IMG/VR virus record: IMGVR_UViG_3300040781_000091
Span: 10,179 to 74,178 of that record
DNA length: 64,000 nt
DNA from: a virus
Strand: one strand, 5' to 3'
This document shows, piece by piece, positions 3,927-59,925 of the stretch. The position numbers and the translations under genes were made by a program. Every line of letters starts with the position of its first letter. The stretch's first letter is position 1. The notes under the pieces are model-generated. The model saw only the letters and a program-made list of their open reading frames with translations. It ran no database searches and was not told the DNA's origin.

Positions 3927-4520
3927 CTATCGAGTAAGTTGTACGCTATCTGCCAAACCCTTTTCTACTGTTTCTTGTGCATTCAGCCAGTAGTCTCGAT
4001 CTAACATAGTAACCATATCTGCTCGTGTTATAGACGGGTTAGTACAATGCTCCATATAGAGATCCGTTAATTCCTCTTTGAGGCGCAGACCTTCTTTTAG
4101 ATCAATTTCCATGTCTGTAATTTTACCACTAGTGCCCCAGCTAGGCTGATGAATCATCATTCTAGCTCTCGGTAGTATGTAACGATGTCCTTTTTCTCCG
4201 CCACTCGACAAAAACGAACCCATAGAACATGCCTGACCAATTACGTAAGTATGCACCGGACATTTGATGTACCGCATTACGTCATAAATTGCCATGCCAG
4301 CAGTAACAGATCCGCCGGGGGAGTTAATATAGAAATTAACAGGTCGGACCGGGTCTTCTGCTTCTAAAAACAGCAATGATGCAACAATACGATCTGCTTT
4401 GTGATCGACAACTTCTCCCGTTAGGAAAATAAGGCGCTCCTTCAGCAAACGACTATAAATATCAAAAGAGCGTTCGCCCTTTGAAGTTTGCTCAATTACT
4501 ACTGGTGTTAAATCACTCAT
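3927..4520 (-). CDS. clpP: ATP-dependent Clp protease proteolytic subunit
   Basis: [23 protein letters not shown], catalytic ACSMGS and MIHQP, DRDYWL. Confidence 0.97.
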
Positions 4521-4551: not shown

Positions 4552-4935
4552 ATGAAAATTAAAGATATATTAACTGAAAATACTGCGCCACTTATTATGA
4601 CTGATCAAACTCAGTTCGACGAAGAGTTTGACACATTCTATAATCCCCAAGCAGACATGATTGCTAATATGAATCGCGACTACTATAAGAAGTATTTTAA
4701 AGAATTCTTTACCGACGGCAGTGTTCCTGTCTTCACAGAAGCCGACAATTATCCTCCCTCCGAAGACGAAGAAGATTGGACTACTAAGCCCAATCCCGAA
4801 GCACCACAATCTGCAGGATACCGCGGACAACAAAATGCTCTACATAGAGCAGGTGTACCACACGATAAAAATGTCGGTGGGTACGACTCTGGTCCGGTTA
4901 TTCCGCTCACACCTAAAAACCTAGATACGATATAA
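4552..4935 (+). CDS. Putative internal head protein with capsid-targeting-like leader
   Basis: Starts MKIKDILTE; late promoter immediately upstream. Confidence 0.6.
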
Positions 4936-6321: not shown

Positions 6322-7737
6322 TTAGCTAATACTAAATGCAATCTTATCTTTGGGGCGCGAGGTTGCGTAATAGTTGGAGCCAGCGTTAAATTCTATCTTA
6401 CCTTTCACTACTGGCGGATACTTAACATTGAACCTATCAAATACCAAATCATCACCGGATTTTCTCACGTGACTATGTAACTGTATGAAAGAGATTCTTG
6501 CAAGTACCTTCTTAAAAAATGTAGTTGGCTTCATTGCATTTAAGTGTGCAGAAACTAACCGTGCTAGACCTGCCATAGTGTGAAAGCCTGCAGTATACGC
6601 AGGGTGATCTAGTTTAGCGTCAGGGTATGCTTTTAGTAATTTTTTGATATTTTTAGAATTACCTAAATACTCTTTGTCGCCATTCTTAATTAGATAAACA
6701 ATTTCCTCAGCATCACTACGATCAATCATACCATACATCTGACCTAGCTTCAGCGGTCCGCTTAGACTGGTATTTTCGGAGATAATATTAATTGCATCGA
6801 TAAGTGGCTTATACTTTGCAAGGAATTGGTCGTCAAACTCGTGTGTGTTTAAAATGTGAACAATAGATTTCAAGCTAGCAGAAACACCACCTTTAGCTTT
6901 CGAGCTAATGCCAATTTTATCGCCACCACCCGATACGAAAGAGTCGACGAGAGGAGTAGATTGTCCGGGTGGAAATGTAATCCACGATAAATCAGTAAAG
7001 CTCTTGTCTACTAATAAATCCCTTTGTGCTCTTTGCCAATCGCCCGTTAATAAATTTGGAGATTTTAATAAAGCAATCGGACCAGCTATCTCACCGATGT
7101 ATTTCTCGATAACTTGTCTGTACTCTGCTGCGCCAGTAACTGGCTCGGAAGTACCGTTGTACACCTGTAATAAGATATTATATATTATCCCCTTTAGCGG
7201 TTCTTTTATATTAGACTGCTTGACGACTTTTAGAATTCCGGCGGGCGTTAATCTCTTTCCTCCGATTAAATCACTCGGCTTTACTTTTGCAGTCTCTGAG
7301 TGTGTTACTTTAGAATCCTTTAAGGTGAACCCGTATTCGTTTTTAAACTGTGTATTAGTCCATGCGTTGCCGTGTTGACTAACATCCGTCCTTTGCCCAT
7401 AACGAACAAATGCAACTCTACGATTATCTTCTGTTTTCCAGACGGTCATCATAGCCGCCTTATTAGGGCTGTTAGAGAAGTGTAAATCACTCTTGCGGAT
7501 TCTTAACTGACGTGCTTTTTCTAAAACTGCGTTTTGTGCTTTTTCGGCCGCAGTTAATGGCTCCGGCTCGTCGGAAGAATCATCTTCAAACGCACCTGAG
7601 TCAGGAAAGTTAAAGATTGCCCAGAGTGTAATTTCTTGTTTTGTTTTAGGATTAACAAAGACTTGGCCAGGGCGAGTCGAGCCTATTCTACTAGCCTCGT
7701 CTATACGCCCTGGCGCAAACAGTTCTACTAACCGCAT
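6322..7737 (-). CDS. Putative virion-packaged protein with PD-(D/E)XK-like nuclease motif
   Basis: Leader MRLVELF..IDEA; YIGEIAGP and PLVDSF...IGISSK resemble an E..D..(S)xK nuclease core. Confidence 0.5.
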   Translation of the reverse strand: MRLVELFAPGRIDEASRIGSTRPGQVFVNPKTKQEITLWAIFNFPDSGAFEDDSSDEPEPLTAAEKAQNAVLEKARQLRIRKSDLHFSNSPNKAAMMTVWKTEDNRRVAFVRYGQRTDVSQHGNAWTNTQFKNEYGFTLKDSKVTHSETAKVKPSDLIGGKRLTPAGILKVVKQSNIKEPLKGIIYNILLQVYNGTSEPVTGAAEYRQVIEKYIGEIAGPIALLKSPNLLTGDWQRAQRDLLVDKSFTDLSWITFPPGQSTPLVDSFVSGGGDKIGISSKAKGGVSASLKSIVHILNTHEFDDQFLAKYKPLIDAINIISENTSLSGPLKLGQMYGMIDRSDAEEIVYLIKNGDKEYLGNSKNIKKLLKAYPDAKLDHPAYTAGFHTMAGLARLVSAHLNAMKPTTFFKKVLARISFIQLHSHVRKSGDDLVFDRFNVKYPPVVKGKIEFNAGSNYYATSRPKDKIAFSIS

Positions 7738-16826: not shown

Positions 16827-17153
16827 CTATATCTTTTCGTATGTTACTTGGAGGGGGTATCCAGAAGTTCTTGCGAGTCTAATAGCTTCTTCGGTTTTTT
16901 CTTCTGCAATCTCTCTAGTATATATTCCAGCAATGCCTCTTCCTTTGTGGTGTATCGAGAGTGTTATTTCCGCGGCTTCTTCTAGGTCCTTATGAAATAC
17001 CATTTGCAATAATGTAATAACAAAATCTACAGTAGTCTTGTCATCGTTGTGAAGTACTACTCGGAACATATTGGGTTCCTGAGTTTTCTGTTTTTCTTTT
17101 TCTTTTTCTATGGACGAAATCTTTTCTAAGATGTCGAAATCTGTAGTTGCCAT
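16827..17153 (-). CDS. clpS: Clp protease adaptor ClpS
   Basis: FRVVLHNDDKTTVDFV, IHHKGRGIAGIYTREIAEEK, YPL. Confidence 0.95.
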   Translation of the reverse strand: MATTDFDILEKISSIEKEKEKQKTQEPNMFRVVLHNDDKTTVDFVITLLQMVFHKDLEEAAEITLSIHHKGRGIAGIYTREIAEEKTEEAIRLARTSGYPLQVTYEKI

Positions 17154-17821: not shown

Positions 17822-18055
17822 TTACGCCTGGGTCGGCGCGTTCATTTGCTCTAGCTTCTTGAGCCAACGCTTGCGCGCCATTTTCTTCTTTCGTTGCTTC
17901 TTCTCGGAAGGTGGCTCATAATACATGCGATCTCTTACTTCTTTTAAGATGCCTGCTTCTTGAACCTTTTTTCCGAATAGTCTAAGTGCTTTGTTAAAGT
18001 CACGATCAACTGTAACTGACAAACCAGATGGTCTGCTATTATGCCGTCTTGCCAT
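17822..18055 (-). CDS. rpsU: 30S ribosomal protein bS21
   Basis: FNKALRLFGKKVQEAGILKEVRDRMYYEPPSEKKQRKK. Confidence 0.9.
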   Translation of the reverse strand: MARRHNSRPSGLSVTVDRDFNKALRLFGKKVQEAGILKEVRDRMYYEPPSEKKQRKKKMARKRWLKKLEQMNAPTQA

Positions 18056-19268
18056 TTTTGTTTACCTGTTTTGATTTTCTTTTGTAAATGTATTTAGGTG
18101 TACCCGTTGGATCTACAACAATTTTATTTACTCCGGCCTTAGCAAGGTCTGGCAAATTAAACTGTGTCTCTTGTAGAGTCTTTTCAATTATAGCCCGAAG
18201 TCCCCGAGCTCCGGTTTTCTTCTCTAGGCTACTATGTGCAACTCCGTGTATGTACTTATCGTCGAACTCTAGTCGAACACCGTCCAAACTGAACAACTGC
18301 TTGAACTGCTGTATGATGTTGTTCTTTGGTTCGGTTAAAATTTGAACTAACATTTCTTCTGTGAGGTCTCCTAATGTAACTACAACAGGAAAACGGCCAA
18401 CAAACTCGGGTATAAGCCCGTAGTGTATAATATCTTGTGGAGACACATCGTGTAACAGCCCTATGTCGGCTGTCTTATCTTGTATAGATGCATTAATACC
18501 AATTGACGTAGCTGACTTACCCTTTCTGATAATTTTGTCTAGTCCGATGAATGCTCCACTAGCAACAAACAAAACATTCGTAGTGTCGAAATCAAACGAC
18601 TCTGACGAATTTCGACGACTCATTTTAATAGTAGTGCCTTCTACTAATTTCAAGAGTGCTTGCTGCACACCCTCCCCTGATACATCACGCGATAAGGTAG
18701 AACTTTCGCTACGACGAGATATCTTATCGATTTCGTCTATAAAGATTATTCCTCTCTGCGCTTTTTCAATATCATAGTCGGCTTTTTCTAAGAGCATCTC
18801 GATTAAATTTTCAACATCGTCGCCAACATAGCCGGATTCGGTGAGTGTGGTCGCATCGGCAATTACACACGGAGCATCGAATATCGTAGCAACAGTCTTG
18901 ACAAGTAATGTCTTACCGGAACCACTCGGACCGATCATTAACAGATTAGATTTATCAATCTCAATATCCGATGTGTCGAATACACGTTTATAATGATTAT
19001 ATACTGCTACACTTATTGCATATTTGGCATCCTCCTGACCGATCACATACTTGTCTAGGTGTGCCTTAATTTCTTTCGGAGTAAATGAAACTTCGTACTC
19101 GTCGTCGACTGTTTCGTCGTTGTCGGTTTCGTGAATAACATCGTAGCTGAAATCTACGCACTGATCACATATATAAATTGTAGACCCTGCAAACTCGGGC
19201 CCGGCAATCATTTGTTTGACTCTGCTTCGTGTTTTGTTACAAAATGAACAGCGTATAGCTTTTGCCAC
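18039..19268 (-). CDS. clpX: ClpX AAA+ unfoldase
   Basis: CSFC/CDQC Zn domain, GPSGSGKT, GYVG, IDEIDK, RDVSGEGVQQALLK, GARGLR. Confidence 0.96.
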   Translation of the reverse strand: MAKAIRCSFCNKTRSRVKQMIAGPEFAGSTIYICDQCVDFSYDVIHETDNDETVDDEYEVSFTPKEIKAHLDKYVIGQEDAKYAISVAVYNHYKRVFDTSDIEIDKSNLLMIGPSGSGKTLLVKTVATIFDAPCVIADATTLTESGYVGDDVENLIEMLLEKADYDIEKAQRGIIFIDEIDKISRRSESSTLSRDVSGEGVQQALLKLVEGTTIKMSRRNSSESFDFDTTNVLFVASGAFIGLDKIIRKGKSATSIGINASIQDKTADIGLLHDVSPQDIIHYGLIPEFVGRFPVVVTLGDLTEEMLVQILTEPKNNIIQQFKQLFSLDGVRLEFDDKYIHGVAHSSLEKKTGARGLRAIIEKTLQETQFNLPDLAKAGVNKIVVDPTGTPKYIYKRKSKQVNKNGKTA

Positions 19269-34648: not shown

Positions 34649-34972
34649 TTAAATATCAACTGCGTCTTGCGCCATCTGCGAGACTCTTTCTTTATTTTCT
34701 TCTTCTGCTTCTCTATCGCCGCTTTGTGCTGCTACATCGTCTGGCTTTAAATTCACTTGTTCGGGTGTTGCTGTTTGAACAAACGGATTGCCATTTAAAA
34801 TGGTCATAATTGAATTATTATTTACATTGTGTCCCATAGCCTGAAGTTGAGTTACCAATAACTCCGTAGGTACATCAGACATGCCACGGCCTTTGGCCGC
34901 AGCAAGTAGGTCTTGTAAATCAACTTCTAGCTGTTCGCCATAGCCCTCAACTAGAATTTCAATTGCTCTCAT
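34649..34972 (-). CDS. Putative head protein with leader MRAIEILVE
   Basis: Leader motif, late operon. Confidence 0.6.
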   Translation of the reverse strand: MRAIEILVEGYGEQLEVDLQDLLAAAKGRGMSDVPTELLVTQLQAMGHNVNNNSIMTILNGNPFVQTATPEQVNLKPDDVAAQSGDREAEEENKERVSQMAQDAVDI

Positions 34973-36303
34973 TACGCAGTTTCTTTTAACGCCTTTGCAC
35001 TAGCAAGAAGCTTTTTCATTTCTGCAATTTTCTTCTTCATGTTCTCTGCAGATTCTTTCTTAGCGCGGCCAAGTGGCTCGTCGTCTGGGCCACTCGCTGC
35101 TGGGTCGCCACCGAATTCATCTTCTATATCTAGATCAATTTCTGCATCGCCTAGATCTGAATCTAGGTCGCCGCCTAGTTCTGCTCCGAGGTCACCTGCA
35201 AGTTCATCGCCTGCAATTTCGGTGTCCATGTCCACGTCGGCAGCTAAGTCGCCAGCGCCGCTTGCCATCTTAGTGACGGTAGCATCGACTTCGTCTTTCG
35301 ACTGATAAAGCGAATCCATAACTGTCTGAAGTGCAGCATTTGTGGTGTTTTGAAAATTAGATGCAATATTAGGACCGTACGTATCACGTACTTGATCTGA
35401 CAAAGGAGGAAGATCTTCGTTCTGTAGGCGACCAATCTTCTCAATCATATCTTGAATAGTCTTGCCAATGCCTTTTACAGCAATAATAATCTCTGCTTCG
35501 TCAACTTCCGACTCTAACAAAGCTCGTAGCTGTCTTACAAAATTTTCTCTCATTTCGGTCTTCCTCTTTGGTATTTGTTTGCTTCTTGCTATTTTTTGTC
35601 TGTTATATGCAGTCTGACCTTGCATAGTTTCTATGCCTTGGTCTCTGTCGTCATCCGCCATTGATAATGTACTACCGTCTAGATAGCTATCAACTGCACT
35701 CTGACCCTTAGGTACCATTTTGGCACGACCGGACTTATCGAGTAGATCGTCCCATGCACTTTCATCGAATTCTGCTTCGGTTTCTGTATCGATCATACAA
35801 TCGCTAGATTCGAAAGCATGTTCCCGTTGGCCTACCTTTTCGATTGCCTTAGCACGACAATCAAAACGTACAGCTTCGTCTGGAAAACGCCACTTACTAG
35901 AACGATATTCTTTCATTGCTTGGTCACATGCATCTTCGATGTCATCACCTAACTCTAAGTTCTGTGCAACAAAATCAGACAACCAATCAATAACACGACG
36001 GTATGGACCAGAGGATGAAAAATCCTGTCTTAGCTCGTCTAAGCGTTTGTTCTCAATGAGCGACTCAACGCACTCTAGAATAAGTAAGTTTTTTGATAAT
36101 TCTGGGCAAGTTCTAGATACGCTACCGTTGATTTTGAGTTGCTGAACTGTTTCAAACACCTCATCTCTGGCTTGTTCTAATTTGCGCTGCGAAGTCTTCG
36201 GGGATATCGTTATACCATAGCGTTCGCCTAGCATACGATTTATCCGCTTAAATCGCTTAGAACTATCCTTTTTAAATTCTTCTAAAAGCATAGTAAGATC
36301 CAT
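34972..36303 (-). CDS. Putative prohead core/scaffold protein
   Basis: Repeated LxE sites (LLEE, LIEN, LLES, LKET), acidic linker, PLGRAKKES; GATAAATA at 36325-36332. Confidence 0.6.
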   Translation of the reverse strand: MDLTMLLEEFKKDSSKRFKRINRMLGERYGITISPKTSQRKLEQARDEVFETVQQLKINGSVSRTCPELSKNLLILECVESLIENKRLDELRQDFSSSGPYRRVIDWLSDFVAQNLELGDDIEDACDQAMKEYRSSKWRFPDEAVRFDCRAKAIEKVGQREHAFESSDCMIDTETEAEFDESAWDDLLDKSGRAKMVPKGQSAVDSYLDGSTLSMADDDRDQGIETMQGQTAYNRQKIARSKQIPKRKTEMRENFVRQLRALLESEVDEAEIIIAVKGIGKTIQDMIEKIGRLQNEDLPPLSDQVRDTYGPNIASNFQNTTNAALQTVMDSLYQSKDEVDATVTKMASGAGDLAADVDMDTEIAGDELAGDLGAELGGDLDSDLGDAEIDLDIEDEFGGDPAASGPDDEPLGRAKKESAENMKKKIAEMKKLLASAKALKETA

Positions 36304-50707: not shown

Positions 50708-50780
50708 TTTATTTCTCCTAAAAATTCTTTTAGCAAATCCTTATGATCTGCTGTTAAGTTTATTTATCAAAATTATCGAA

Positions 50781-51071
50781 TTATTTGCTAATAGATAACT
50801 CTAAATCGTATATATGTCCGTCGTCTAACTCTACTTTAGCATAATACCCGTCTGCCTTAGCGTTTAGCTCGTGAAATTTAACGAAATGTGGGTTCTTTTT
50901 AAGTTCGTTATAAAAAGCAAAGCCCGAGGTGCCGTAAGACGATGGCTCCTGTTTTTCATCATAAATGCTAGCACGTTTGTTCATTTTGCCGGTACTATGA
51001 CCGATAGTAGCGATATTTCCGGCTCCGGTTGCACCCATACTAGCAGATTCTTTTATGTCTTTAATTCTCAT
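50781..51071 (-). CDS. Putative internal head protein
   Basis: MRIKDIKESASMGATGAGNIA. Confidence 0.65.
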   Translation of the reverse strand: MRIKDIKESASMGATGAGNIATIGHSTGKMNKRASIYDEKQEPSSYGTSGFAFYNELKKNPHFVKFHELNAKADGYYAKVELDDGHIYDLELSISK

Positions 51072-51334
51072 CGGAAAGGCGCCTCTTCATCTCTTGCCGG
51101 AGCAGATGGGTAATCACTCTGGAGTGTTGCAAGATCGTCGATTGTTGATCGAGTGCCATTTTTCTTTAATTGCTTTCCAGCTACTCTTAATAGATCAGCA
51201 AGTTCTTTATCGGATGGTTCGCCATCTAGGAAATCATTCACTATAGTTTTCACCATACTTCTAAGCGCACTCGGAGAGGACAACCCGATTGGGCTCTCGT
51301 CGAGACTTTCGTTTGTAATATCTTTAAACTTCAT
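51068..51334 (-). CDS. Putative internal head protein
   Basis: Likely start MKFKDITNE at 51334. Confidence 0.6.
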   Translation of the reverse strand: MKFKDITNESLDESPIGLSSPSALRSMVKTIVNDFLDGEPSDKELADLLRVAGKQLKKNGTRSTIDDLATLQSDYPSAPARDEEAPFR

Positions 51335-51629
51335 GCTTCTTCTCTCTCCAAATATCGCCAAGTACTTTTATGTCCGACTTGCGTATATTTAGCATTAATT
51401 GAAGTAGCTGATTCGTAGTTTCTTGATTTGTACGAGAACTAAGAGAGTACTTAGATTTTATCTGACTAATTAGTGATTGCATTTCCTTTTCTCGTGCAAC
51501 TGCTCCACGAAAAACACGATCGATAGTCTCGAAGTCGACGTCGGCATATCGTTTACGTAACTCGGAAGCGGCTGCCGATTCGTCGTAGTTTACACCGATA
51601 TCTCGTTTTGTCACTTCGTCGAGTTTCAT
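51324..51629 (-). CDS. Putative internal head protein
   Basis: MKLDEV leader. Confidence 0.6.
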   Translation of the reverse strand: MKLDEVTKRDIGVNYDESAAASELRKRYADVDFETIDRVFRGAVAREKEMQSLISQIKSKYSLSSRTNQETTNQLLQLMLNIRKSDIKVLGDIWREKKHEV

Positions 51630-52642
51630 CCTACAAACCTCTGCCCTTTAAGATAACCCTCGGGCTTAGTTTGCATAGTTGCATATCGTCCGCCAGCACT
51701 ATCCTTCTGATCGTCTTCTTGCAATTGGACATCACGTGGAACCTCTTCTTTAGAGATCACACCCGACTTTAGCGCCATTGAATAAATTCTTTCTACCATC
51801 GGATGCTTACGCATAACAGGAGCCTGATCTATATAAAAAGACAGGTTTTCAATCTCATCAGCAAGACGATCGGCAAATATAGCAACTTCTTCATATTGAT
51901 ATTCGGCTTCGTCGTGGTCACCGGCTTGTCCCCACATCTCACTTACCTTCTTAAGGTCTTTAATTATCCCTGCAAGATCGGGGTTCTCCATAGCGGTGTC
52001 TTCTTCTAGCTCCCCGGTGACTTCCCCTATAATGGTATGTGCGTCTTCGCTTCTAAGCCACGTTGCAACAGTTTTGTTATTAGCCGAATATATAGTATTG
52101 GGTTCACTCGGACGACCCGCTACACGCCATGGTAGGGGATATTCTTCTGTCGGGCCGAATGTGGCGGCGTCTACTCCGTCGCCTATGCCAGCGAAGCCTT
52201 TTGCTTTAAATTCTGCATCGCGCTCTCGGCTTCTCTGGTGTAGTGCTTTTAGGGTCGGAGACTCTCTGCCTTCTTTGTCGCCTTCCTCTTGCAAACTTTC
52301 GTTCTTCTTATTCTCTCGATTCCAGGCAGTCGAATACAATACACGCTCCCAGTCCTTTCCGTATCGAGCTTTGAACTCAGGCTTGCGCTTTTTAATCCAT
52401 TCTTCCTGACCGGGCGGAGCAACCTCATTAACGGCCCACGAACTATATGTTCCAGGGCGAACCGCATGGCGGCGCTCTTGTTCTTTAGCAATATCCAATG
52501 CAGACTTTCCACGGAAGCGAGGATCTGCTGCTAATTCCTCAAATCTTTTACGCAGCTCTTCGTTAGACATTGCAGCGAGCTTTTGCTTTTGTTTAGCAAC
52601 TACCGACGGCATGCCTTCGTTTAATATATCATTAATTTTCAT
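51626..52642 (-). CDS. Putative multi-segment internal head protein
   Basis: MKINDILNEG; internal VNEVAPPG..YSTAW, LQEE, LEED and LQED sites. Confidence 0.65.
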   Translation of the reverse strand: MKINDILNEGMPSVVAKQKQKLAAMSNEELRKRFEELAADPRFRGKSALDIAKEQERRHAVRPGTYSSWAVNEVAPPGQEEWIKKRKPEFKARYGKDWERVLYSTAWNRENKKNESLQEEGDKEGRESPTLKALHQRSRERDAEFKAKGFAGIGDGVDAATFGPTEEYPLPWRVAGRPSEPNTIYSANNKTVATWLRSEDAHTIIGEVTGELEEDTAMENPDLAGIIKDLKKVSEMWGQAGDHDEAEYQYEEVAIFADRLADEIENLSFYIDQAPVMRKHPMVERIYSMALKSGVISKEEVPRDVQLQEDDQKDSAGGRYATMQTKPEGYLKGQRFVG

Positions 52643-52651
52643 AGTGTGTCC

Positions 52652-53050
52652 TTATACCGTTAGTTTAGGATTGCTGGTCATGAAATTCGGTTTACGCATC
52701 ACTGTCTTAGCAATCAGTTCAAACATTTTTCTACGTGGATTCCAGTTTAATACAAAGGGCGAATTAAGCTTACTTCCCACGTCATTTATAACAGCCTGTG
52801 CCTTATCTCCCATGTCTGCTATTTGTTTTCCGTACTTTTGTTCGGCCTTTCCGAACATTTTAAATAATTCGCCTGTAGTAATCTGCTTTCTGTTACGCTG
52901 ATCGTTTACGCGGTCAAGAAAGTGGCGAGTAAATTCTAGGTCGATGTCGTCCCTATTATACAAAGCATCTAGATATTTTTCAAGTGAATCTAGATCTTGC
53001 TGAGTAACAGGTTCGTCGGGCGAAGTTGATGTAAATTCGTATAATCTCAT
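52652..53050 (-). CDS. Putative RelE/BECR-fold RNase-like protein with leader
   Basis: MRLYEF leader; FTRHFLDR helix and terminal IAKTVMRK strand. Confidence 0.45.
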   Translation of the reverse strand: MRLYEFTSTSPDEPVTQQDLDSLEKYLDALYNRDDIDLEFTRHFLDRVNDQRNRKQITTGELFKMFGKAEQKYGKQIADMGDKAQAVINDVGSKLNSPFVLNWNPRRKMFELIAKTVMRKPNFMTSNPKLTV

Positions 53051-53940
53051 GCCGCCCCCATATACTGTGCAATTTCCGGTGGGTAATCGTATTCACGTTT
53101 ACCGATGTCGTGATGTTGTGAGAAATTCTTTGCCATCTGTTTAAATATTTCTTCTTGTGTTGCTTTATCGAACGATTTCTTTACGGCTTCGACAATTGAT
53201 TCTGCGCTGTTCAAAACATTTGCTCCTGCTTTTCCGATGAATAATATCTTAGCGATATCTTCTGCTTTTTTGTAGGGCTTCCCTAAAATTACTTCGTCCT
53301 GCTTCTGGAGCCATTTCCCAGTCTTGGCGTTTTTTCTACTAGTACGTTTTACTTTTATTAATCCGTCGTTCGGTGACCACTTCCATCTAATTGTTTCTAT
53401 CGGTCTTCCTTGATCGTCGACTTCTTTACTGGTTGCTCTATCTGTAAATCCTGCAAGGGTAGACAATGCAATATTACGGTGTGTTCCTTTTAATTTAGAC
53501 TCGGTTTCGCTAGGAGAGTGCAGATATAATTTCAACCAATCTCTGTCGCCAAACATATAATCAACCTGCACATATCCTGTTCGAGGATGTCTAGCATCGT
53601 GCGCTGGGTTAAAGTTTTGTATAGGCACCTTTGTCGTAAGTAGTTTACCTATCTTACGTACATTTACATCACCGAATGTCTTTCTTAGATCTGAGATAAA
53701 TTGATCCATCTCTTCTTTGGTCTTCGGTTCTACTGCAAGATCAATGTCACCGCTGTATTCTTTTTTGCCAACCGAACCTAGCACACGGCCACCGATATCC
53801 TCGAGGTTAGTTTTTTTAGCAATATAGTCGAGTGTCGGTTGTAACTCGTCGATGTGTATTGTTCCGACACCGTCGAATGCGTTACCTCCCTCGTGAAGAC
53901 GCGCCCTAGCTTGCTCGTTTAAGATGTCAAATAATCTCAT
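53047..53940 (-). CDS. Pol-beta superfamily nucleotidyltransferase with leader
   Basis: VLGSVGKKEYSGDIDLAV (GS..DxD) and YVQVD third Asp. Confidence 0.75.
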   Translation of the reverse strand: MRLFDILNEQARARLHEGGNAFDGVGTIHIDELQPTLDYIAKKTNLEDIGGRVLGSVGKKEYSGDIDLAVEPKTKEEMDQFISDLRKTFGDVNVRKIGKLLTTKVPIQNFNPAHDARHPRTGYVQVDYMFGDRDWLKLYLHSPSETESKLKGTHRNIALSTLAGFTDRATSKEVDDQGRPIETIRWKWSPNDGLIKVKRTSRKNAKTGKWLQKQDEVILGKPYKKAEDIAKILFIGKAGANVLNSAESIVEAVKKSFDKATQEEIFKQMAKNFSQHHDIGKREYDYPPEIAQYMGAA

Positions 53941-54158
53941 TAGATATCCAAGTCGAAGTCTTTAATAATTGACCGGTACTTACTTACAATCTTGTCGTTC
54001 TTGTCCCACATGCTCATTACTTTTTTCATGGCACCCTGGGCCAAAAGATCGCCCGACTCCTTGCGCTTGAGATCACTGATGATTTGCTTATATTGCCGAA
54101 TAGACAATTCATCCAATCCTTCGTCTACTGCCTGTTCTGTTACTTCATCTATTCTCAT
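53940..54158 (-). CDS. Small putative head protein
   Basis: MRIDEVTE leader. Confidence 0.6.
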   Translation of the reverse strand: MRIDEVTEQAVDEGLDELSIRQYKQIISDLKRKESGDLLAQGAMKKVMSMWDKNDKIVSKYRSIIKDFDLDI

Positions 54159-54159
54159 A

Positions 54160-54765
54160 TTACAAACCCTTATCTATTACTATACGGTTTATCCAGCCGC
54201 GTATAAATGTTTCTTGCGATTCTTCTTCGAGCGCTCGTTTGATGTAGTGTGCGCCTCTTTGTATTAATAATGTCTTCAACACAAGCTCCGGATCGCACGA
54301 TGCTAAAAGTATGTTATAAGATCTAATTGTTACGTTTCCGGGCTTTCCGTCTACTACCAAATCACTATACAGCGATCCTTTGCGATTAAATATATTTAAC
54401 GCAGTTTGTAAAAACTTAGCACTACGAGTTTTGCCCATGTTGACCCCGGCGTCAAACACTTCTGCTGCAATCGGTAGACTACGAGCTGCTAAGTCTTCGC
54501 AACGTAAGGGATTCCAAAAGTTCTCAATGTAGAATTTTTTAATTTCGTCATCTAAACTCTCATTACTGTTTAAAGATCTAGGAAATCCAGATTCCTTCTT
54601 TGCTGCATCAACTACCTCCCAGCCTTTCCACTGCGGCCAATATACGCGGCTAATACCTTTAATTGTTTCTTTGCCGATGTCGTCTGGGTTATTAACATAC
54701 CCACCTTCGAACTTCAACGTAAACTTATATGCTTTCTGAAATGCTGCGCTACCTGTGTCCGACAT
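54160..54765 (-). CDS. Glycoside hydrolase family 108 lysozyme with PG-binding domain
   Basis: EGGYVNNPDD.GKET..GI, VFDAGVNMG, DGKPG..T, F.RGW.NR. Confidence 0.9.
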   Translation of the reverse strand: MSDTGSAAFQKAYKFTLKFEGGYVNNPDDIGKETIKGISRVYWPQWKGWEVVDAAKKESGFPRSLNSNESLDDEIKKFYIENFWNPLRCEDLAARSLPIAAEVFDAGVNMGKTRSAKFLQTALNIFNRKGSLYSDLVVDGKPGNVTIRSYNILLASCDPELVLKTLLIQRGAHYIKRALEEESQETFIRGWINRIVIDKGL

Positions 54766-54775
54766 TACTTATCTC

Positions 54776-56242
54776 CTATATTTCGCTTAACTGGCGTCCT
54801 ACCAATAATTTTAACAAGTCCTCAGTAGACTTGGCACGTTTAATTCCTAACTTAAATGCTTCTAACTGTTTATATACAGATGCAAACACCTGCAATGTTC
54901 TCTTGTCTACTTCCTCGTCATAGTGAAACTCTCGCGTCTTGCCGCCTAAGTCTACTGTAACTTTTTTATCGCCCACCTCGTCTTTATACTTGTCTAACTC
55001 CGAGGACAACTTCTTCTCTTGTTGATCGATATAATTTCTCCAATAGCTTTTTACACTCGAGAAATCCACATCACTTGTCAATTCCTGTACGATCTCTTCT
55101 GGGGTATTTCCGAACTTCTTTAAATACCGTTTTGCCTGCATAGTGCCTAGTTCGGGGTGCCCGAGTGAAGTTGCAAGTCCTACCAGTAGTCTACCGAGGA
55201 AGCTTTCTAACGTATGCACTGATTTAGGACGTTCCGCTAGCTCAGACCGTACCTGCCATATAAAATTCTTCACCGTTAGGAACATGTCTTTGTCTACTAC
55301 CTTGAACATTGCTCCAGTTTTTTTGTGTCTAAAAACGACGCCCTCGATCCAGCCGCCGTCTTCTATCTCTGGCCCAAACTCACTTTTTATCTGGCGCACT
55401 AAATCGTTTAATAGTAATTCCTTTATTCTTAACTTGTACCCAAGGCCGTCTTCGCTGTCGCCTTGTACATGCTTGTGTACTTCTTCGCGCTTTTTCTTTA
55501 CCCGCTCTTTAATTTCGCTCCAGTCCTTGGGGTCAATTCCTTCTGGACGCTTATTTAAAGGCACACCCAGAATATCTACATTAGAAAATTTCCATATGCC
55601 GGATGGCTTCTTTAAGTACTCGTCTAACTCGTCTAACTCTTTGTTGATTCTTTCACGGACTACGTCATCGATGAGTTCGTTGCCTTCCCAACTCGGCGTT
55701 TTAGCAAAAGTCCACTTGTGTTCTTCTTCGGCCATGTGTATTGTTTTGCCATCTATTGTGTACGGCGAATCAACCGCCACGTACACAGACTCGCCGTCTA
55801 ATGTATCTCTTAAGGAAGTTAAATCGACCTCACCTTCTATTACTCGGAGGAAGATGATTTCGTTTTCTTCGCTAGAATACGGTACAGCATTTGGCAGTTT
55901 GCCAAACAGTACTTCGGCTTCTACTCTGTCGCCGCGAGCTAAGCCAGCATCAATTAGTTGTGGCAACACTTTTTCTAGCGCGGCATGGGCTGACCGCTGA
56001 AACGTAGTTGAGAAGTTAATAGGATGATCACTGACGTCATGCATACGCTTGCCGCCTTTGTCTTCGCGTGAGGTGTAGAAGCCGCCTTCGTCTATTCCGA
56101 ACTGTATATTGCTCCCGTCTATTTTTTCGGATACTTCGTATTCTTCGAAATTACGCAAAGCATCGATAAACTGGTCGATTTTTAAATCTTCGACGTGGGT
56201 AATACCCTCGAACATCGGCCGGCGGAGTTGTTCAAATCTCAT
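54776..56242 (-). CDS. ATP-dependent ligase superfamily (RNA ligase-like) protein with leader
   Basis: SEKIDGSN (motif I), EAEVL (III), IEGVVF (IV), FKVVD (V); likely start MRFEQL..MFEG. Confidence 0.7.
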   Translation of the reverse strand: MRFEQLRRPMFEGITHVEDLKIDQFIDALRNFEEYEVSEKIDGSNIQFGIDEGGFYTSREDKGGKRMHDVSDHPINFSTTFQRSAHAALEKVLPQLIDAGLARGDRVEAEVLFGKLPNAVPYSSEENEIIFLRVIEGEVDLTSLRDTLDGESVYVAVDSPYTIDGKTIHMAEEEHKWTFAKTPSWEGNELIDDVVRERINKELDELDEYLKKPSGIWKFSNVDILGVPLNKRPEGIDPKDWSEIKERVKKKREEVHKHVQGDSEDGLGYKLRIKELLLNDLVRQIKSEFGPEIEDGGWIEGVVFRHKKTGAMFKVVDKDMFLTVKNFIWQVRSELAERPKSVHTLESFLGRLLVGLATSLGHPELGTMQAKRYLKKFGNTPEEIVQELTSDVDFSSVKSYWRNYIDQQEKKLSSELDKYKDEVGDKKVTVDLGGKTREFHYDEEVDKRTLQVFASVYKQLEAFKLGIKRAKSTEDLLKLLVGRQLSEI

Positions 56243-56861
56243 TATCGCTAACACCTTTCTTGGGGTAGTCGCCCTCGCCTAATCCTTCGTTGCTTTGTGC
56301 TGGGATTAAATCGGCTAAGCGAGTAAATAGATATTTAATTGCTTTGTTTGTGATAGGTGCTTCTGTTAGCTCTACTGACTCAGTGACACCGTCTAAATAT
56401 TGTAATACCGGTTCTGCCATATTGGCAGCTATAATACTGTTTGCTAGGTTTGTAATTTTCTGATCGTCCGATCCTGTTACACCTGCATTCTTCAGGGCTC
56501 TTTTTATTTCGCCATCGGAAATGTCGAACTCACGAAGCATCCTCACGATTTCTCTGAGGTCGGTCGGTGAATGAAGATCTTCCCACGCATCATATAAATC
56601 TTCATATGTGATCTCGTTGCGTTCTCTAAACTTGCCCGTAGCCCTTTTAGCATTGTTGTACTTCTTTGATACAAATTGTTTAGCATAGTTTATAGGCCCT
56701 TCGGTTAATCCAGCAAGCTCTTTTAGCCGCTCAATTTCTTCATTTTTTTTGTTTACTGAAAACTTATCTATAGTTTTAGTGAGCGAGCTTTTACCAGAGC
56801 CACGCAATTTAACGATTTCGTCGAATATTGCTCTGATTGTATTTTTACTAAGAGTTGGCAC
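56232..56861 (-). CDS. Putative head protein
   Basis: EIERLKELAGLTEG; VTES and LTEA sites. Confidence 0.6.
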   Translation of the reverse strand: MPTLSKNTIRAIFDEIVKLRGSGKSSLTKTIDKFSVNKKNEEIERLKELAGLTEGPINYAKQFVSKKYNNAKRATGKFRERNEITYEDLYDAWEDLHSPTDLREIVRMLREFDISDGEIKRALKNAGVTGSDDQKITNLANSIIAANMAEPVLQYLDGVTESVELTEAPITNKAIKYLFTRLADLIPAQSNEGLGEGDYPKKGVSDNEI

Positions 56862-57189
56862 GTTGTAACTCCCGCTTTAATTGTCTTCGTTGCTCGGGAG
56901 TGAGCTTATCCCGTATTAACGCTTTTATTCGATTTAGTCGGTCGGGATCTACTCTCTTCGTATCGTCTTGCTTGCCGATATTAAGGAGCTCGCTTATACG
57001 AGCCAATAACTTGTTTGATATACGAGCACCGTTGAGTTGGGCTGGTAGATATTCTTCCACAAATGCCAAGACATCGGTGTCTTCTGGGGGTGTGCCATCT
57101 TGCTCTGGTGTTGCTATTCCCTTGGATTTCGCATAGCGAACCCAAGCCTTTACCATTGCTAAGACTCTCGGATCATTCTTGTCGGCCAT
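56848..57189 (-). CDS. Hypothetical late protein
   Basis: Likely start MADKND at 57189. Confidence 0.6.
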   Translation of the reverse strand: MADKNDPRVLAMVKAWVRYAKSKGIATPEQDGTPPEDTDVLAFVEEYLPAQLNGARISNKLLARISELLNIGKQDDTKRVDPDRLNRIKALIRDKLTPEQRRQLKRELQRANS

Positions 57190-57445
57190 TGCAGTCTTTA
57201 CTCTCTTTAACTTTTCGTATAGAACGAACAAACCTGTTAGGATCGCTGCCCTTGATACTACTAATGAAACGTTTTTTGAGTTGATCTGCTTCTTCGGGGG
57301 TATAAACTTCGTCTATCATTTCGAGAAGAAAAATGGCCGCAGAAATTGCATGGTGGGCCCTCATTTCAATTAGGTCCTCTTTGTTCTTCTTCGGGACATA
57401 ATTGTTAATTTCGTGAAGAATACTCTTTGCTTTTCTATAACCCAC
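57173..57445 (-). CDS. Hypothetical late protein, first gene of the operon
   Basis: GAGGTG RBS; GATAAATA at 57473-57480. Confidence 0.65.
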   Translation of the reverse strand: MGYRKAKSILHEINNYVPKKNKEDLIEMRAHHAISAAIFLLEMIDEVYTPEEADQLKKRFISSIKGSDPNRFVRSIRKVKESKDCNGRQE

Positions 57446-57485
57446 GTCAGATCACCTCGTTAATCTTTTTTGTATTTATCAAGGT

Positions 57486-58907
57486 TCACTCCATTTTTTT
57501 AATTAAATCACGGAGGGCTGTGGCCTTCGTGGCTGTTTCGGTGGGCGAGTCCGGCATTTTATTAGGAGCAGTAGGTATTCCCCCACTTGTCGTATTTGTT
57601 ATTACATTTTTCTTCTTCAATGTGTCCATAATATTCTTAGTCTGGGCAACTACTGCGCTATCGTCGTCCTCGTCTAGATCTGTAATTCTTAGTGTTTTTC
57701 CATTAAACGCTAAATCTACTTTAGACCCTACGCCAGAACTAGAACGTGTCTTCATAAACTGTATCTGATATCGGCCTGCTTCTTTCATTGCTGCTGTTGT
57801 AAAGATACCAATTACGTTGTCTGCTGTGTTTACCTTCGAAATACCGCCTGCGATGTGACTGGCATCGAATTCGATCTCTTCGAACGATCCTCTGTTTAGC
57901 TGTGATGCAGTAGCAAACAACACTTGTAAATCTGCTGCTAAGTTTCTAAGTTCCTCAGATACGTATTTGTCTTTAATAAACTGATCGCTCGGACTAACTT
58001 TAACAGATACAGGCCAGCACAAATCCAAATAGTCCACTAATAATGCATCTACCTTAACGCCAGTTTGAACTTCGTACTCTTTAAGATACGCCCGGATATC
58101 GTTTACTGTTGTTCCGCTCGGCATATACTTTAATCGAATGGAACCCTTATTTTTCTTCTGTGCTGATTTAACCCGCATCGCAACATCTTCCATGTTACGC
58201 AACACATCACGTGTCTCGCATCCTGCTGTCATTGCGTCTAATCTCATGGCCGATAAGTTCTCAGACAGCTCAAGTGTAATGTACACCACGTTTAGGCCGT
58301 TTTCTGCCCAGTTTACGGCTAAATTTTGAAGGAATAAGCTCTTTCCTGCACCAGGTTGTCCTGCAAAAATAGTAATCTCGCCGCGGTTAAATCCGCCGTA
58401 TAATTTACGATCAACAGATGCCCAGCCTGTAGATAATAATCCGCTGTTATCTCGTATGGCCTGAAGTCTTGCAAGCGGATCTGCGTAGTAATCTGTTCCT
58501 AAGTCTTTGACCAGTCCAATCTGCACTGCTGCCTTAATGCTAGACTCGACTTCCCCATATCTGCTTTCTTCTAGTAGATCGGGCGAGCTCAAAATTGCAA
58601 TCTCTAATGCTTTATGCCGGCAAAACTTTTCGTATTGCTCTAGAAACCAATCTTTATGATGATCGGTTATATTTTCCTCTAACTCAACTGTCTTTCCAGC
58701 AACTGCTTTAATCTGTGCCAGCGTAGGCATAGAGTTGTAATCGTTTGTATGCGATCCTAAAAATACAATTGTCTTTTTGTTGACTTCGCTGTTAAAAAAG
58801 TCAGGAGATGTGATACCTTTACATCTAATAAATAATTCAGGATCAGTTACCATGTAACTTATAAAGAGGTCTTCAACTTCCTTGGTATACGCCTGTATGT
58901 CGTTCAT
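57486..58907 (-). CDS. Replicative DnaB-family helicase (T4 gp41-like)
   Basis: GQPGAGKS, ITLELSE, LVDYLD, TASQLNR, KTR. Confidence 0.93.
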   Translation of the reverse strand: MNDIQAYTKEVEDLFISYMVTDPELFIRCKGITSPDFFNSEVNKKTIVFLGSHTNDYNSMPTLAQIKAVAGKTVELEENITDHHKDWFLEQYEKFCRHKALEIAILSSPDLLEESRYGEVESSIKAAVQIGLVKDLGTDYYADPLARLQAIRDNSGLLSTGWASVDRKLYGGFNRGEITIFAGQPGAGKSLFLQNLAVNWAENGLNVVYITLELSENLSAMRLDAMTAGCETRDVLRNMEDVAMRVKSAQKKNKGSIRLKYMPSGTTVNDIRAYLKEYEVQTGVKVDALLVDYLDLCWPVSVKVSPSDQFIKDKYVSEELRNLAADLQVLFATASQLNRGSFEEIEFDASHIAGGISKVNTADNVIGIFTTAAMKEAGRYQIQFMKTRSSSGVGSKVDLAFNGKTLRITDLDEDDDSAVVAQTKNIMDTLKKKNVITNTTSGGIPTAPNKMPDSPTETATKATALRDLIKKME

Positions 58908-59925
58908 TCTTATCTAATTTCCATTTTAATTCTATCGTCGTAGGATTTCTCTCCGACGAATCTATTATTGATTTTATCGTTAGAATTCTTCCGAATTTTT
59001 CTACGGCTTTAGCTGGGTCCTTTATGCCAATGCCCCAATCCGGAAATGCAACACGCCAACCATTTTTAATCGCGATGTTGACTAATGTACCGCCATCTTT
59101 GTCCTTGTCTGGGCACACTATAATTATCTTGCCTAAACTATTAAGCATCTGTATCTGGTCTTCGTTCATTGTACTGTGACACGGGCTAACGCCGTCTGTA
59201 AAATATGCGTCGAATACGCCTTCGCACAGTATAACGTATTTGCGATCGAAATCTGCCTGTTTACTAAGGTTGTATATATAATTATCAGGCATCTGATTTA
59301 TATATTTGGGAAGTTTCTTATTTGGCGGTTCGCCGAAGTATCTCCCTGTGTAACCTACAATTTCATTTTTATAATAAAACGGCAAAGTAAGTCGCTTATG
59401 AAACATGAATTCTTTGTCTGGAGTCCAAAACAATTCGTCCAACTTACGAAAGCGTCGATTAACTGCATATTCAGCTACACGCATGAAGTTAGGATCAGTG
59501 CAACCATCTGTTAGCCAATCTAATATACTACGAGAATTAGGAGGGAGAGACTTCGGTGTCCAATTCTTAGTAATTACGCCTCGGAGCTTTATCTCTGAAT
59601 CTGCTTCAAGTGAATTCTGCTCTTTGAACAGTTCGAAGTTTAGCTTCTGTATATCATATTGCGAAATACCTAGCTCGGACATAACACGCTGGAACTTTGC
59701 ACTGAGTGAATGACCGGGAGTAAACACTGCATCGTATCCGCAATTGAAACAATTAACTGCTATCTTTCCATCTGGACTAAAAAGCACGCCGAAACGTCCC
59801 TTAGTATCAGCGGACTCGCCTTTCAAATGGCACAGCATACAATTACGCCGCAGCCATCCTTTAGGTGTCTTTTTTAAGGGACCTAAGTGCTCTAGGAGAA
59901 TTTCTTTAACTAAGTCTTGAACCAT
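58873..59925 (-). CDS. DNA primase (T4 gp61-like)
   Basis: CMLC..CFNC Zn finger, GYTGR, KY, TOPRIM CEGVFDA and PDKD..G, KDP. Confidence 0.9.
   Translation of the reverse strand: MVQDLVKEILLEHLGPLKKTPKGWLRRNCMLCHLKGESADTKGRFGVLFSPDGKIAVNCFNCGYDAVFTPGHSLSAKFQRVMSELGISQYDIQKLNFELFKEQNSLEADSEIKLRGVITKNWTPKSLPPNSRSILDWLTDGCTDPNFMRVAEYAVNRRFRKLDELFWTPDKEFMFHKRLTLPFYYKNEIVGYTGRYFGEPPNKKLPKYINQMPDNYIYNLSKQADFDRKYVILCEGVFDAYFTDGVSPCHSTMNEDQIQMLNSLGKIIIVCPDKDKDGGTLVNIAIKNGWRVAFPDWGIGIKDPAKAVEKFGRILTIKSIIDSSERNPTTIELKWKLDKNERHTGVYQGS

Follow-up and report, generated by a model that had tools for sequence, protein, structure and literature searches.

The window analysed here is a stretch of 64 kb (64,000 nucleotides, nt) out of the 74-kb linear virus record IMGVR_UViG_3300040781_000091, to which CheckV assigns a completeness of 21%. 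Nearly all of its genes lie on the minus strand. Among them is an operon, entirely on that strand, encoding an RNA-ligase-like protein, a nucleotidyltransferase (NTase) resembling the family-X polymerases (Pol X), and a protein of 132 amino acids (aa) with the fold of the ribonucleases RegB and RelE, and all three start with a similar short leader, below also called the tag. It is fairly likely that the operon belongs to an uncultured jumbo phage of the PA5oct/Rak2 kind and is a late-transcribed set of genes for proteins targeted to the head, and that a trimmed Pol X-like NTase is ejected together with the DNA and acts on nucleic-acid ends. The features most directly concerned are the following:

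57473..57480, minus strand: GATAAATA, a motif resembling a late promoter at the head of the operon; the next start follows after 28 nt.
54776..56242, minus strand: RNA-ligase-like covalent nucleotidyltransferase, 488 aa, with the leader MRFEQLRRPMFE before GITH; assigned from PF09414 and its motifs.
53940..54158, minus strand: leader-bearing protein of 72 aa (MRIDEVTE), between the lysin and the NTase.
53047..53940, minus strand: minimal family-X-polymerase-like nucleotidyltransferase, 297 aa, leader MRLFDILNE; assigned from its model and structural matches.
52652..53050, minus strand: RegB/RelE-fold protein, putative endoribonuclease, 132 aa, leader MRLYEF; the gene overlaps the NTase stop by 4 nt.

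The genes for primase (58873-59925) and DnaB helicase (57486-58907) immediately precede the block. After DnaB the order is GATAAATA, a 90-aa gene, two small open reading frames (ORFs), the ligase, a lysin, the 72-aa gene, the NTase, the 132-aa gene and four small genes reaching to 50781. The motif [GT]ATAAATA is found 19 times in the window where 9.7 copies are expected, a count reached in 0 of 100 shuffles, and the copies are mostly located 19-70 nt upstream of structural genes. Since the subsequent minus-strand copy of GATAAATA is found only at 50761-50768, with no other copy and no minus-strand terminator seen between 57473 and 50768, the block from 57473 to 50781 may reasonably be read as one late transcription unit. 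The motif at 57473, the protein motifs quoted below, the three leaders and the lack of a leader on the GH108 lysin are all as described in an earlier note on this DNA.

The pattern M[RK]-h-x-[DEQ]-h, where h is a hydrophobic residue, opens 11 real ORFs out of about 100 in the window; MRLFDILNEQARARLHE is an example of the tag. In a slightly widened form it is found at 11 of the 82 minus-strand ORF starts, as compared to 4 of 383 internal methionine positions. A hydrophobic-x-Glu (h-x-E) triplet follows within residues 3-14 in 10 of the 11 tagged ORFs, but only in 14 of the 71 others (20%). The leader is present in eight of the nine consecutive genes between 50781 and 56242, all but the lysin, and in three genes elsewhere. 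It was originally taken to be a feature of the three enzymes. That it is real and similar to the capsid targeting sequence (CTS) of T4 is supported by these sequence comparisons, but it is not special to the enzymes, as at least 11 window proteins bear it. The codons used for it differ between genes, thus the conservation is at the peptide level, and this rules out a signal acting on the RNA. A relic of paralogy was also rejected, as the proteins are otherwise unrelated, and an N-degron for the phage's own Clp system was set aside as well: the predicted cut is expected to leave G, Q, S, F or P at the N-terminus, with a residue of the ClpS type exposed on the 132-aa protein alone.

The prohead protease of T4, gp21, cleaves behind L/I-x-E, and for targeting to the head ten residues at the N-terminus of IPIII are enough (PMC9026906). 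Both ipII and ipIII of T4 open with MKTYQEFIAE, and many homologues of the 132-aa protein start with MKTFKEIYE, MKTFKQFEQ or MKNFSEYLAE. For the ligase, 82% of 120 homologues have an h-x-E triplet in residues 3-14, and for the 132-aa protein the share is 84%, again in 120 homologues. The strongest of the new results is a putative cleavage signature, which comes from 93 NTase representatives in which the start of the fold could be located. Of these, 24 begin exactly at M-[GS]-G, while 69 have sequence upstream, and in 60 of the 69 the motif [LIVFMYA]-x-E stands directly before GG. What precedes the GG is otherwise unrelated, being a leader, the 72-aa domain, the C-terminus of a ligase, the 132-aa domain or a long linker. 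Junctions in fused proteins read VTE/GGNAF, LNE/GGNVF and INE/AFQS. By analogy, the NTase of the window is predicted to be cut after L-H-E17, giving a mature protein that starts with G18-G19-N; the site coincides with a stretch, residues 13-18, that is disordered in the model of the protein.

A complete relative of 328 kb (G001) displays the same leader on 22 of its 461 ORFs as compared to 4 of 2180 internal methionines, and 21 of the 22 have the h-x-E triplet. One of the tagged proteins (G001 232773-233225, L102:12773-13225, start MRLYEIDSE) is the anti-CBASS protein Acb1 (PF23474, E 9.5e-17), which fits a cargo acting early in infection and hints at a counter-defence enzyme that may be loaded into the head in advance. 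Further tagged proteins of G001 are an NTase of the CTP_transf_like family (L097:6042-7145), an Amidoligase_2 protein (L105:8758-10788) and a GNAT protein (L104:3517-3993). A protease of the gp21 family (Peptidase_S77, PF03420) is encoded by three complete relatives of 328-369 kb and by PA5oct, with E values of 1e-25 to 1e-27.

The resemblance to the internal proteins IPI-III and to Alt of T4 thus includes a short N-terminal tag with key hydrophobic positions, an end of the h-x-E type and late expression. In addition, the complete relatives have a gp21-family protease, the putative cargo includes enzymes, as Alt is an enzyme, and homologues are found in virions. The consensus here, M[RK]hx[DE]h, differs from the MKTYQEFIAE of T4, and the tagged proteins are more numerous, about 11 on the fragment and about 22 in the complete relative. 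The cargo would also be different, as it comprises nucleic-acid enzymes that T4 does not package, partly as polyproteins; targeting and cleavage are in the present case predicted from sequence.

Published virion proteomes exist for two cultured relatives, PA5oct and Atu_ph07. The GenBank record of PA5oct annotates gp230, gp231 (the NTase homologue), gp232-235 and gp237-239 as structural proteins identified through tandem mass spectrometry with electrospray ionization. For Atu_ph07, the genes were tied to Supplementary Table S5 by computed mass, and for gp63-65 and gp67-69 the agreement is to two decimals. Its NTase homologue gp65 (32.16 kDa) is represented by 10 unique peptides covering 36.8% of the protein, and gp63, gp64, gp67, gp68 and gp69 were all detected in virions as well. 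The NTase is thus a virion protein in two independent phages. This bears out one part of the earlier note, which had all three enzymes packaged, while the ligase homologue was found in neither proteome. In both cases the NTase was detected and the ligase missed. Taken with the cut-site signature, this gives good support to head-loading and trimming of the NTase; for the 132-aa protein they are plausible, and for the ligase they are doubtful.

It might be argued that these proteins are not cargo at all. The N-terminus would then be a feature of processing, assembly chaperoning, folding or translation, the enzymes would be late cytoplasmic proteins serving for instance replication or packaging beside the primase and the helicase, and the mass-spectrometric signals would be caused by contamination or loose association. 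The position of the block directly after primase and DnaB fits this explanation, as does the missing ligase. The virions were moreover purified using polyethylene glycol, and the lists hold proteins identified by a single peptide and some obviously non-structural enzymes. It is still very unlikely, since a coverage like that of gp65 together with the detection of all its neighbours but the ligase speaks against it, and the h-x-E/GG junction is retained in unrelated contexts, which is hard to explain without proteolysis. The tag is further close to the experimentally defined CTS of T4, and the varying codons exclude a signal in the RNA. At least the Pol X-like enzyme probably travels in the virion and enters the host along with the DNA.

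When it comes to the fold of this enzyme, G55, D65, D67 and D127 are invariant in 58 homologues, at least 90% of which also retain S56, K59 and G64, so that the catalytic signature of the Pol beta type (GS, DxD and a third Asp) is complete. The structural model has a pLDDT of 94. The top nine VIA structural matches are all Pol X enzymes, with Z scores of 7.2-8.7 over 157-185 aligned residues; they comprise Pol beta, TdT, Thermus Pol X, Leishmania Pol beta, Pol lambda, African swine fever virus (ASFV) Pol X and Pol mu. A Foldseek search agrees with Pol X (E 3.5e-5). TUTases, CD-NTases, MenT and poly(A) polymerases, on the other hand, align with the palm of about 90 residues only (Z at most 6.7), and no CCA-adding enzyme is found within the top 50 structural matches. 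The Pol X match across palm and thumb speaks against both a CCA-adding enzyme and a signalling CD-NTase, and the nucleotide-signalling role that was originally offered as an option is not supported. The assignment to the Pol beta type of NTase has held. The sequence comparisons point the same way at low significance: when the family profile is compared with PDB sequences, Pol lambda comes out best, with a weak match (E 0.3) around the GS...GDxD motif, and the sole recurrent Pfam hint is DNA_pol_B_palm, found in 5 of 58 members with a best E of 0.023, below the cut-off.

The 8-kDa dRP-lyase domain and the helix-hairpin-helix DNA-binding domain are absent from the model, in which the fold opens around residue 20 with a palm helix. 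ASFV Pol X, of which 160 of 176 residues align with the NTase, also lacks both, so their absence does not exclude a polymerase function. Judged by its predicted structure, the protein is best read as a Pol X-like enzyme in the minimal form known from ASFV Pol X. With the minimal family-X polymerases, that is ASFV Pol X and the palm-thumb core of Pol beta, it shares the motif GS-x2-K-x4-GD-x-D and the third Asp, and the predicted fold aligns over palm and thumb with Z 7.7-8.7. Two further traits in common with ASFV Pol X are the absence of the 8-kDa domain and a ligase as partner. Unlike the family, it shows no significant membership by sequence, has about 50 extra residues at the C-terminus and seems to be made as a precursor with a propeptide.

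The ligase-like protein matches the RNA_ligase profile PF09414 over its full length (positions 1-171) with E 1.6e-5, and at 25.6 bits it falls just short of the cut-off of 27. The same profile is matched at E<0.01 by 19 of 26 homologues, none of which is reported above the cut-off. K40, D42 and G43 (KIDG), R59, E110, E300, G301 and V303 (EGVV) and K314 (FKV) are invariant in the 26 homologues, and judging from the spacing E110, E300-G301-V303 and K314 would represent motifs III, IV and V. The earlier placing of the protein in the ligase superfamily is upheld by this, and it can more closely be described as a predicted enzyme of the RNA-ligase family just below the Pfam threshold. Motifs I (KxDG), III, IV (EGVV) and V, the coverage of the full profile and the phage origin are shared with ligases of the Rnl2 type. 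It differs from these in having about 80 residues inserted between motifs IIIa and IV and a unique C-terminal domain of about 170 residues. A search of PDB sequences with the ligase profile gave no match.

Neighbours of the ligase in the ESM Atlas are phage clusters with DUF6267 and CTP_transf_like domains. The link to DUF6267 comes from these neighbours only, since a direct hhalign comparison between the ligase profile and a protein carrying DUF6267 was not significant (probability 1%); PDB sequences searched with a DUF6267 fusion protein gave no match. In Atu_ph07 the ligase-like homologue gp66 (L089:2664-3638) is cut down to 324 aa. It opens just before motif I (MNTVTLLEKLDG), is tagless, and its gene overlaps the NTase gene by 11 nt.

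The 132-aa protein is predicted with a pLDDT of 90.6, its helices being packed against an antiparallel sheet of four strands. In an exhaustive structure search E. coli RelE came first (Z 7.1, 77 aa, root-mean-square deviation 3.0), and more than 20 of the top 30 matches belong to the superfamily of RelE, ParE, YoeB, HigB and YafQ. The longest alignment, 113 residues at Z 5.5, is obtained with RegB of T4. In a comparison with predicted viral structures, a 140-aa protein of Escherichia phage Ec_Makalu_003 that is annotated as a site-specific RNA endonuclease, and probably is a RegB homologue, also matches the model (E 1.8e-5, TM 0.68/0.65). Thus the RelE-like fold, considered the weakest link when it was proposed, turned out to hold as far as the predicted fold goes. 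The motifs FTRHFLDR (residues 40-47) and KTVMRK (115-120) are invariant or nearly so in 30 homologues, and the invariant H43 of HFLDR pairs with HLLDR of RegB (residues 48-52), which contains the catalytic His48, in an alignment that is not statistically significant. The second catalytic histidine of RegB, His68, aligns to Gly or Lys, in the window protein to Gly67.

On the sequence level little is found: hhalign against T4 RegB was not significant (probability 0.5%), the profile gave chance-level matches to PDB sequences, and Pfam reported a sub-threshold DUF3867 in 11 of 30 members of the family and no RelE, ParE or DUF4258. RegB has an extra N-terminal helix that RelE lacks, and cleavage of the RegB/RelE type generates 2',3'-cyclic phosphate and 5'-OH ends (PMC3014915). 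The 132-aa protein has the same fold including this helix, an H-h-L-D-R motif and a phage origin in common with RegB, so that a closest relationship to T4 RegB within the RelE/ParE fold holds at the level of the predicted fold; the protein is a probable metal-independent endoribonuclease. RegB is an early, cytoplasmic enzyme, however, while the 132-aa protein would be expressed late with a head tag and, in the alignment, lacks the second histidine. Unlike the RelE-type toxins, it has no antitoxin-like partner in sight. It belongs to a very large family of over 1100 clusters, in the main from T4-like marine phages. In Sinorhizobium phage phiM12 the last 117 residues of the 602-aa protein SmphiM12_458 (L083:2582-4390) constitute the 132-aa domain (E 5e-37), and neither the ligase profile nor that of the NTase finds a match in the 470 residues at the N-terminus.

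The association of these genes was followed in 80 IMG/VR loci with a ligase homologue, in which the NTase was located by profile search. Wherever the ligase is at least 34% identical and there is room for the NTase, the locus has it downstream of the ligase at a distance of 0-2.7 kb. The two genes occur together in 35 of the 58 loci with at least 3 kb of downstream sequence, and in five loci they are within one ORF. In PA5oct and Atu_ph07, too, primase and DnaB are followed by a small virion protein, the ligase and then the NTase. Conserved synteny of the trio, as expected from the earlier note, is therefore confined to the ligase and the NTase as far as separate genes are concerned, since the 132-aa gene is near the ligase in only 1 of the 80 loci. 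Fusions with the NTase, however, join all three. Among the 150 best cluster representatives of the NTase family (more than 550 in all), searched with the ligase and 132-aa profiles, seven are ligase-NTase fusions, and at least ten contain the NTase and the 132-aa domain, in both orders. In one of these (P0243) the NTase is 58% identical to that of the window, and the domain order is as in the window. Other representatives combine the NTase with DUF6267, with or without CTP_transf_like. As judged from gene order and fusions, the same kinds of partner recur around the NTase, which forms their hub.

Several representatives (P0241, P0245, P0247 and others) have an N-terminal extension of about 80-120 aa within the NTase ORF, in each case ending in h-x-E before GGN, and that of P0241 resembles the 72-aa protein by eye. 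On this comparison the 72-aa protein is probably a detached N-terminal pro-domain of the NTase. Its positional counterpart in PA5oct, gp230, starts with MRLDEIQ and is one of the proteins detected by mass spectrometry.

Taken in order, the steps of the favoured reading, head targeting followed by ejection of a trimmed Pol X-like enzyme, would be as follows. A tag of the form M-[RK]-hydrophobic-x-acidic-hydrophobic with a nearby hydrophobic-x-Glu would act like the CTS of T4 and bring the protein into the core of the assembling prohead, where a protease of the gp21 type would cut after the glutamate. The NTase, cut after Glu17, would remain in the virion and leave it with the DNA. The recurrent partners, that is the RegB/RelE-fold protein and the RNA-ligase-like enzyme, bear the same tag and are elsewhere made as one polyprotein with the NTase, and they might be retained in the same way. 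The kit would then work on the ends of nucleic acids at the very start of infection, ahead of phage gene expression. As a best guess, the Pol X-like enzyme, with the ligase where present, extends and seals 3' ends or gaps, while the RegB-like protein independently cuts host mRNA.

The nature of the substrate is indicated in two directions. The fold of the NTase and the pairing of a Pol X with a ligase favour DNA, while the RNA-ligase match and the RegB-like partner favour RNA. A DNA-directed kit, in which gap filling and the sealing of nicks or ends on the phage genome, either injected or just packaged, fall to the Pol X-like enzyme together with the ligase and the RegB-like protein is unrelated co-cargo, is a possibility, though less likely than not. 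It would parallel the Pol X and ligase of ASFV or bacterial non-homologous end joining (NHEJ). The best structural and sequence matches of the NTase (Pol beta, lambda, mu, TdT and ASFV Pol X) agree with it, and so do DNA_pol_B_palm as the only recurrent Pfam hint, the conserved gene order from primase and DnaB to ligase and NTase, and the direct terminal repeats of relatives. The ligase is nevertheless nearest to RNA ligases, not DNA ligases, the NTase lacks the lyase and helix-hairpin-helix domains, and the ligase was not detected in virions; the polymerase and sealing roles are predictions. It is rather unlikely that the function can be specified as far as an NHEJ-like or gap-filling repair, or an end protection, of the incoming genome throughout a large clade of jumbo phages, combined with a shut-off of host mRNA.

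The earlier note saw instead a system in which all three enzymes are injected and jointly repair or remodel RNA, either by a resealing of tRNA that host anticodon nucleases have cut, like that of T4 Pnkp/Rnl1, or by cutting, modification and ligation. PF09414 is indeed the sole family match of the ligase, the fold of the 132-aa protein and the histidine aligned with His48 of RegB suggest a ribonuclease, and the tag and the fusions link all three. The match of the NTase to Pol X is, on the other hand, difficult to reconcile with this, as is the lack of a CCA-adding enzyme among its best structural relatives. Furthermore, no kinase or phosphatase domain for healing of ends was found among the 12 genes of the operon, and a partner like Pnkp is thus missing. 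Among uncharacterized proteins, those with DUF6267 are the nearest relatives of the ligase. A ribonuclease and a ligase are also awkward in one pathway, since cyclic-phosphate ends need to be healed first, and the ligase homologue is missing from both virion proteomes. A joint RNA repair is for these reasons improbable and remains conjecture.

Some observations also weigh against head targeting with subsequent action on nucleic-acid ends. The virion evidence comes from no more than two phages, and in these the ligase homologues are the only genes of the block missing from both lists: PA5oct gp228 is absent among the proteins annotated by mass spectrometry, and Atu_ph07 gp66 (38.04 kDa) is not on the virion list. 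PA5oct gp231 and Atu_ph07 gp65 start at M-S/G-G without a tag and are still found in virions, so the tag is not the only route into the head, or an adjacent tagged protein carries them. The 74-kb, 21%-complete fragment encodes no prohead protease, Peptidase_S77 and Acb1 both being absent from it. The Z scores of 7-9 are only moderate on the structure-search tool's own calibration. Fusions that are split by protease-type sites may reflect shared packaging rather than shared chemistry, and a linear scheme in which RNA is cut, extended and sealed is chemically awkward, because ends with a cyclic phosphate and a 5'-OH can be used neither by a polymerase nor by an ATP-dependent ligase, and no healing enzyme is found in the operon.

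The remaining genes of the transcription unit, and the tagged genes outside it, are:

57173..57445, minus strand: first gene of the unit, 90 aa, virion protein family (phrog_11854 'virion structural protein', E 2.2e-19).
56232..57231, minus strand: two small leaderless ORFs (127 and 209 aa); family searches gave no match.
54160..54765, minus strand: leaderless lysin with GH108 and PG_binding_3 domains (Pfam E 5e-21 and 8e-11), start MSDTG.
51626-52642, 51324-51629, 51068-51334 and 50781-51071, minus strand: four leader-bearing ORFs of 338, 101, 88 and 96 aa, candidate internal proteins, with the leaders MKINDILNE, MKLDE, MKFKDITNE and MRIKDIKE.
34649..34972, minus strand: leader-bearing virion protein of 107 aa outside the operon, start MRAIEILVE (phrog_15050 'virion structural protein').
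6322..7737, minus strand: leader-bearing protein of 471 aa, MRLVE; no family match.
4552..4935, plus strand: leader-bearing protein of 127 aa, MKIKDILTE, with its own GATAAATA six nt upstream; no family match.

The 90-aa gene is syntenic with PA5oct gp225, and Atu_ph07 gp68, which is found at the same position and has an N-terminus that is alike by eye, was detected by mass spectrometry. So were PA5oct gp226 and gp227, which are paired with the two small ORFs by position alone. The lysin gene is an insertion that separates the ligase from the 72-aa gene and the NTase, and among the 80 related loci it is found only in L003. Family searches gave no match for any of the four ORFs in 50781-52642, and nothing matched when the region was compared by blastn with 50,697 phage records. 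Outside the operon, the positional match of the 107-aa protein in PA5oct, gp238, has a similar N-terminus (VKIKDILVE) and was detected by mass spectrometry. The gene at 4552-4935 is among the very few plus-strand genes of the window, and its leader is perfect. The neighbouring 34972-36303 encodes a virion protein of 443 aa (phrog_14154) that is collinear with PA5oct gp237, also detected by mass spectrometry, and has an N-terminal region alike by eye. It opens with MDLTMLLEE, a variant of the tag that the regular expression misses, and the number of tagged genes is therefore a lower bound. At 3927-4520, 16827-17153 and 18039-19268 the N-termini resemble, by eye, those of ClpP, ClpS and ClpX homologues.

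The natural tagged cargo known from T4 is small, consisting of the internal proteins and Alt. No paper was found on DUF6267, on this cassette or on a Pol X-like enzyme in a phage virion. A wider use of a capsid-targeting tag with subsequent trimming was anticipated by Black and colleagues (PMC9026906). While the principle of tag and trimming is thus known from T4, what is new here is the cargo, the scale and the polyprotein forms. The same principle of loading would be used at a much larger scale, with about 11 tagged proteins on the fragment and about 22 in the complete relative, and this would account for the presence of 'hypothetical' proteins from the block in the PA5oct and Atu_ph07 virion proteomes. 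Three large uncharacterized families would gain a fold and a role: the NTase (more than 550 cluster representatives), the 132-aa protein (more than 1100 clusters) and the ligase with DUF6267. The finding points to pre-packaged nucleic-acid enzymes as a strategy of jumbo phages for the first minute of infection, and if the enzymes do repair ends, the incoming DNA would be able to withstand host nucleases at a stage when no phage gene has yet been expressed.

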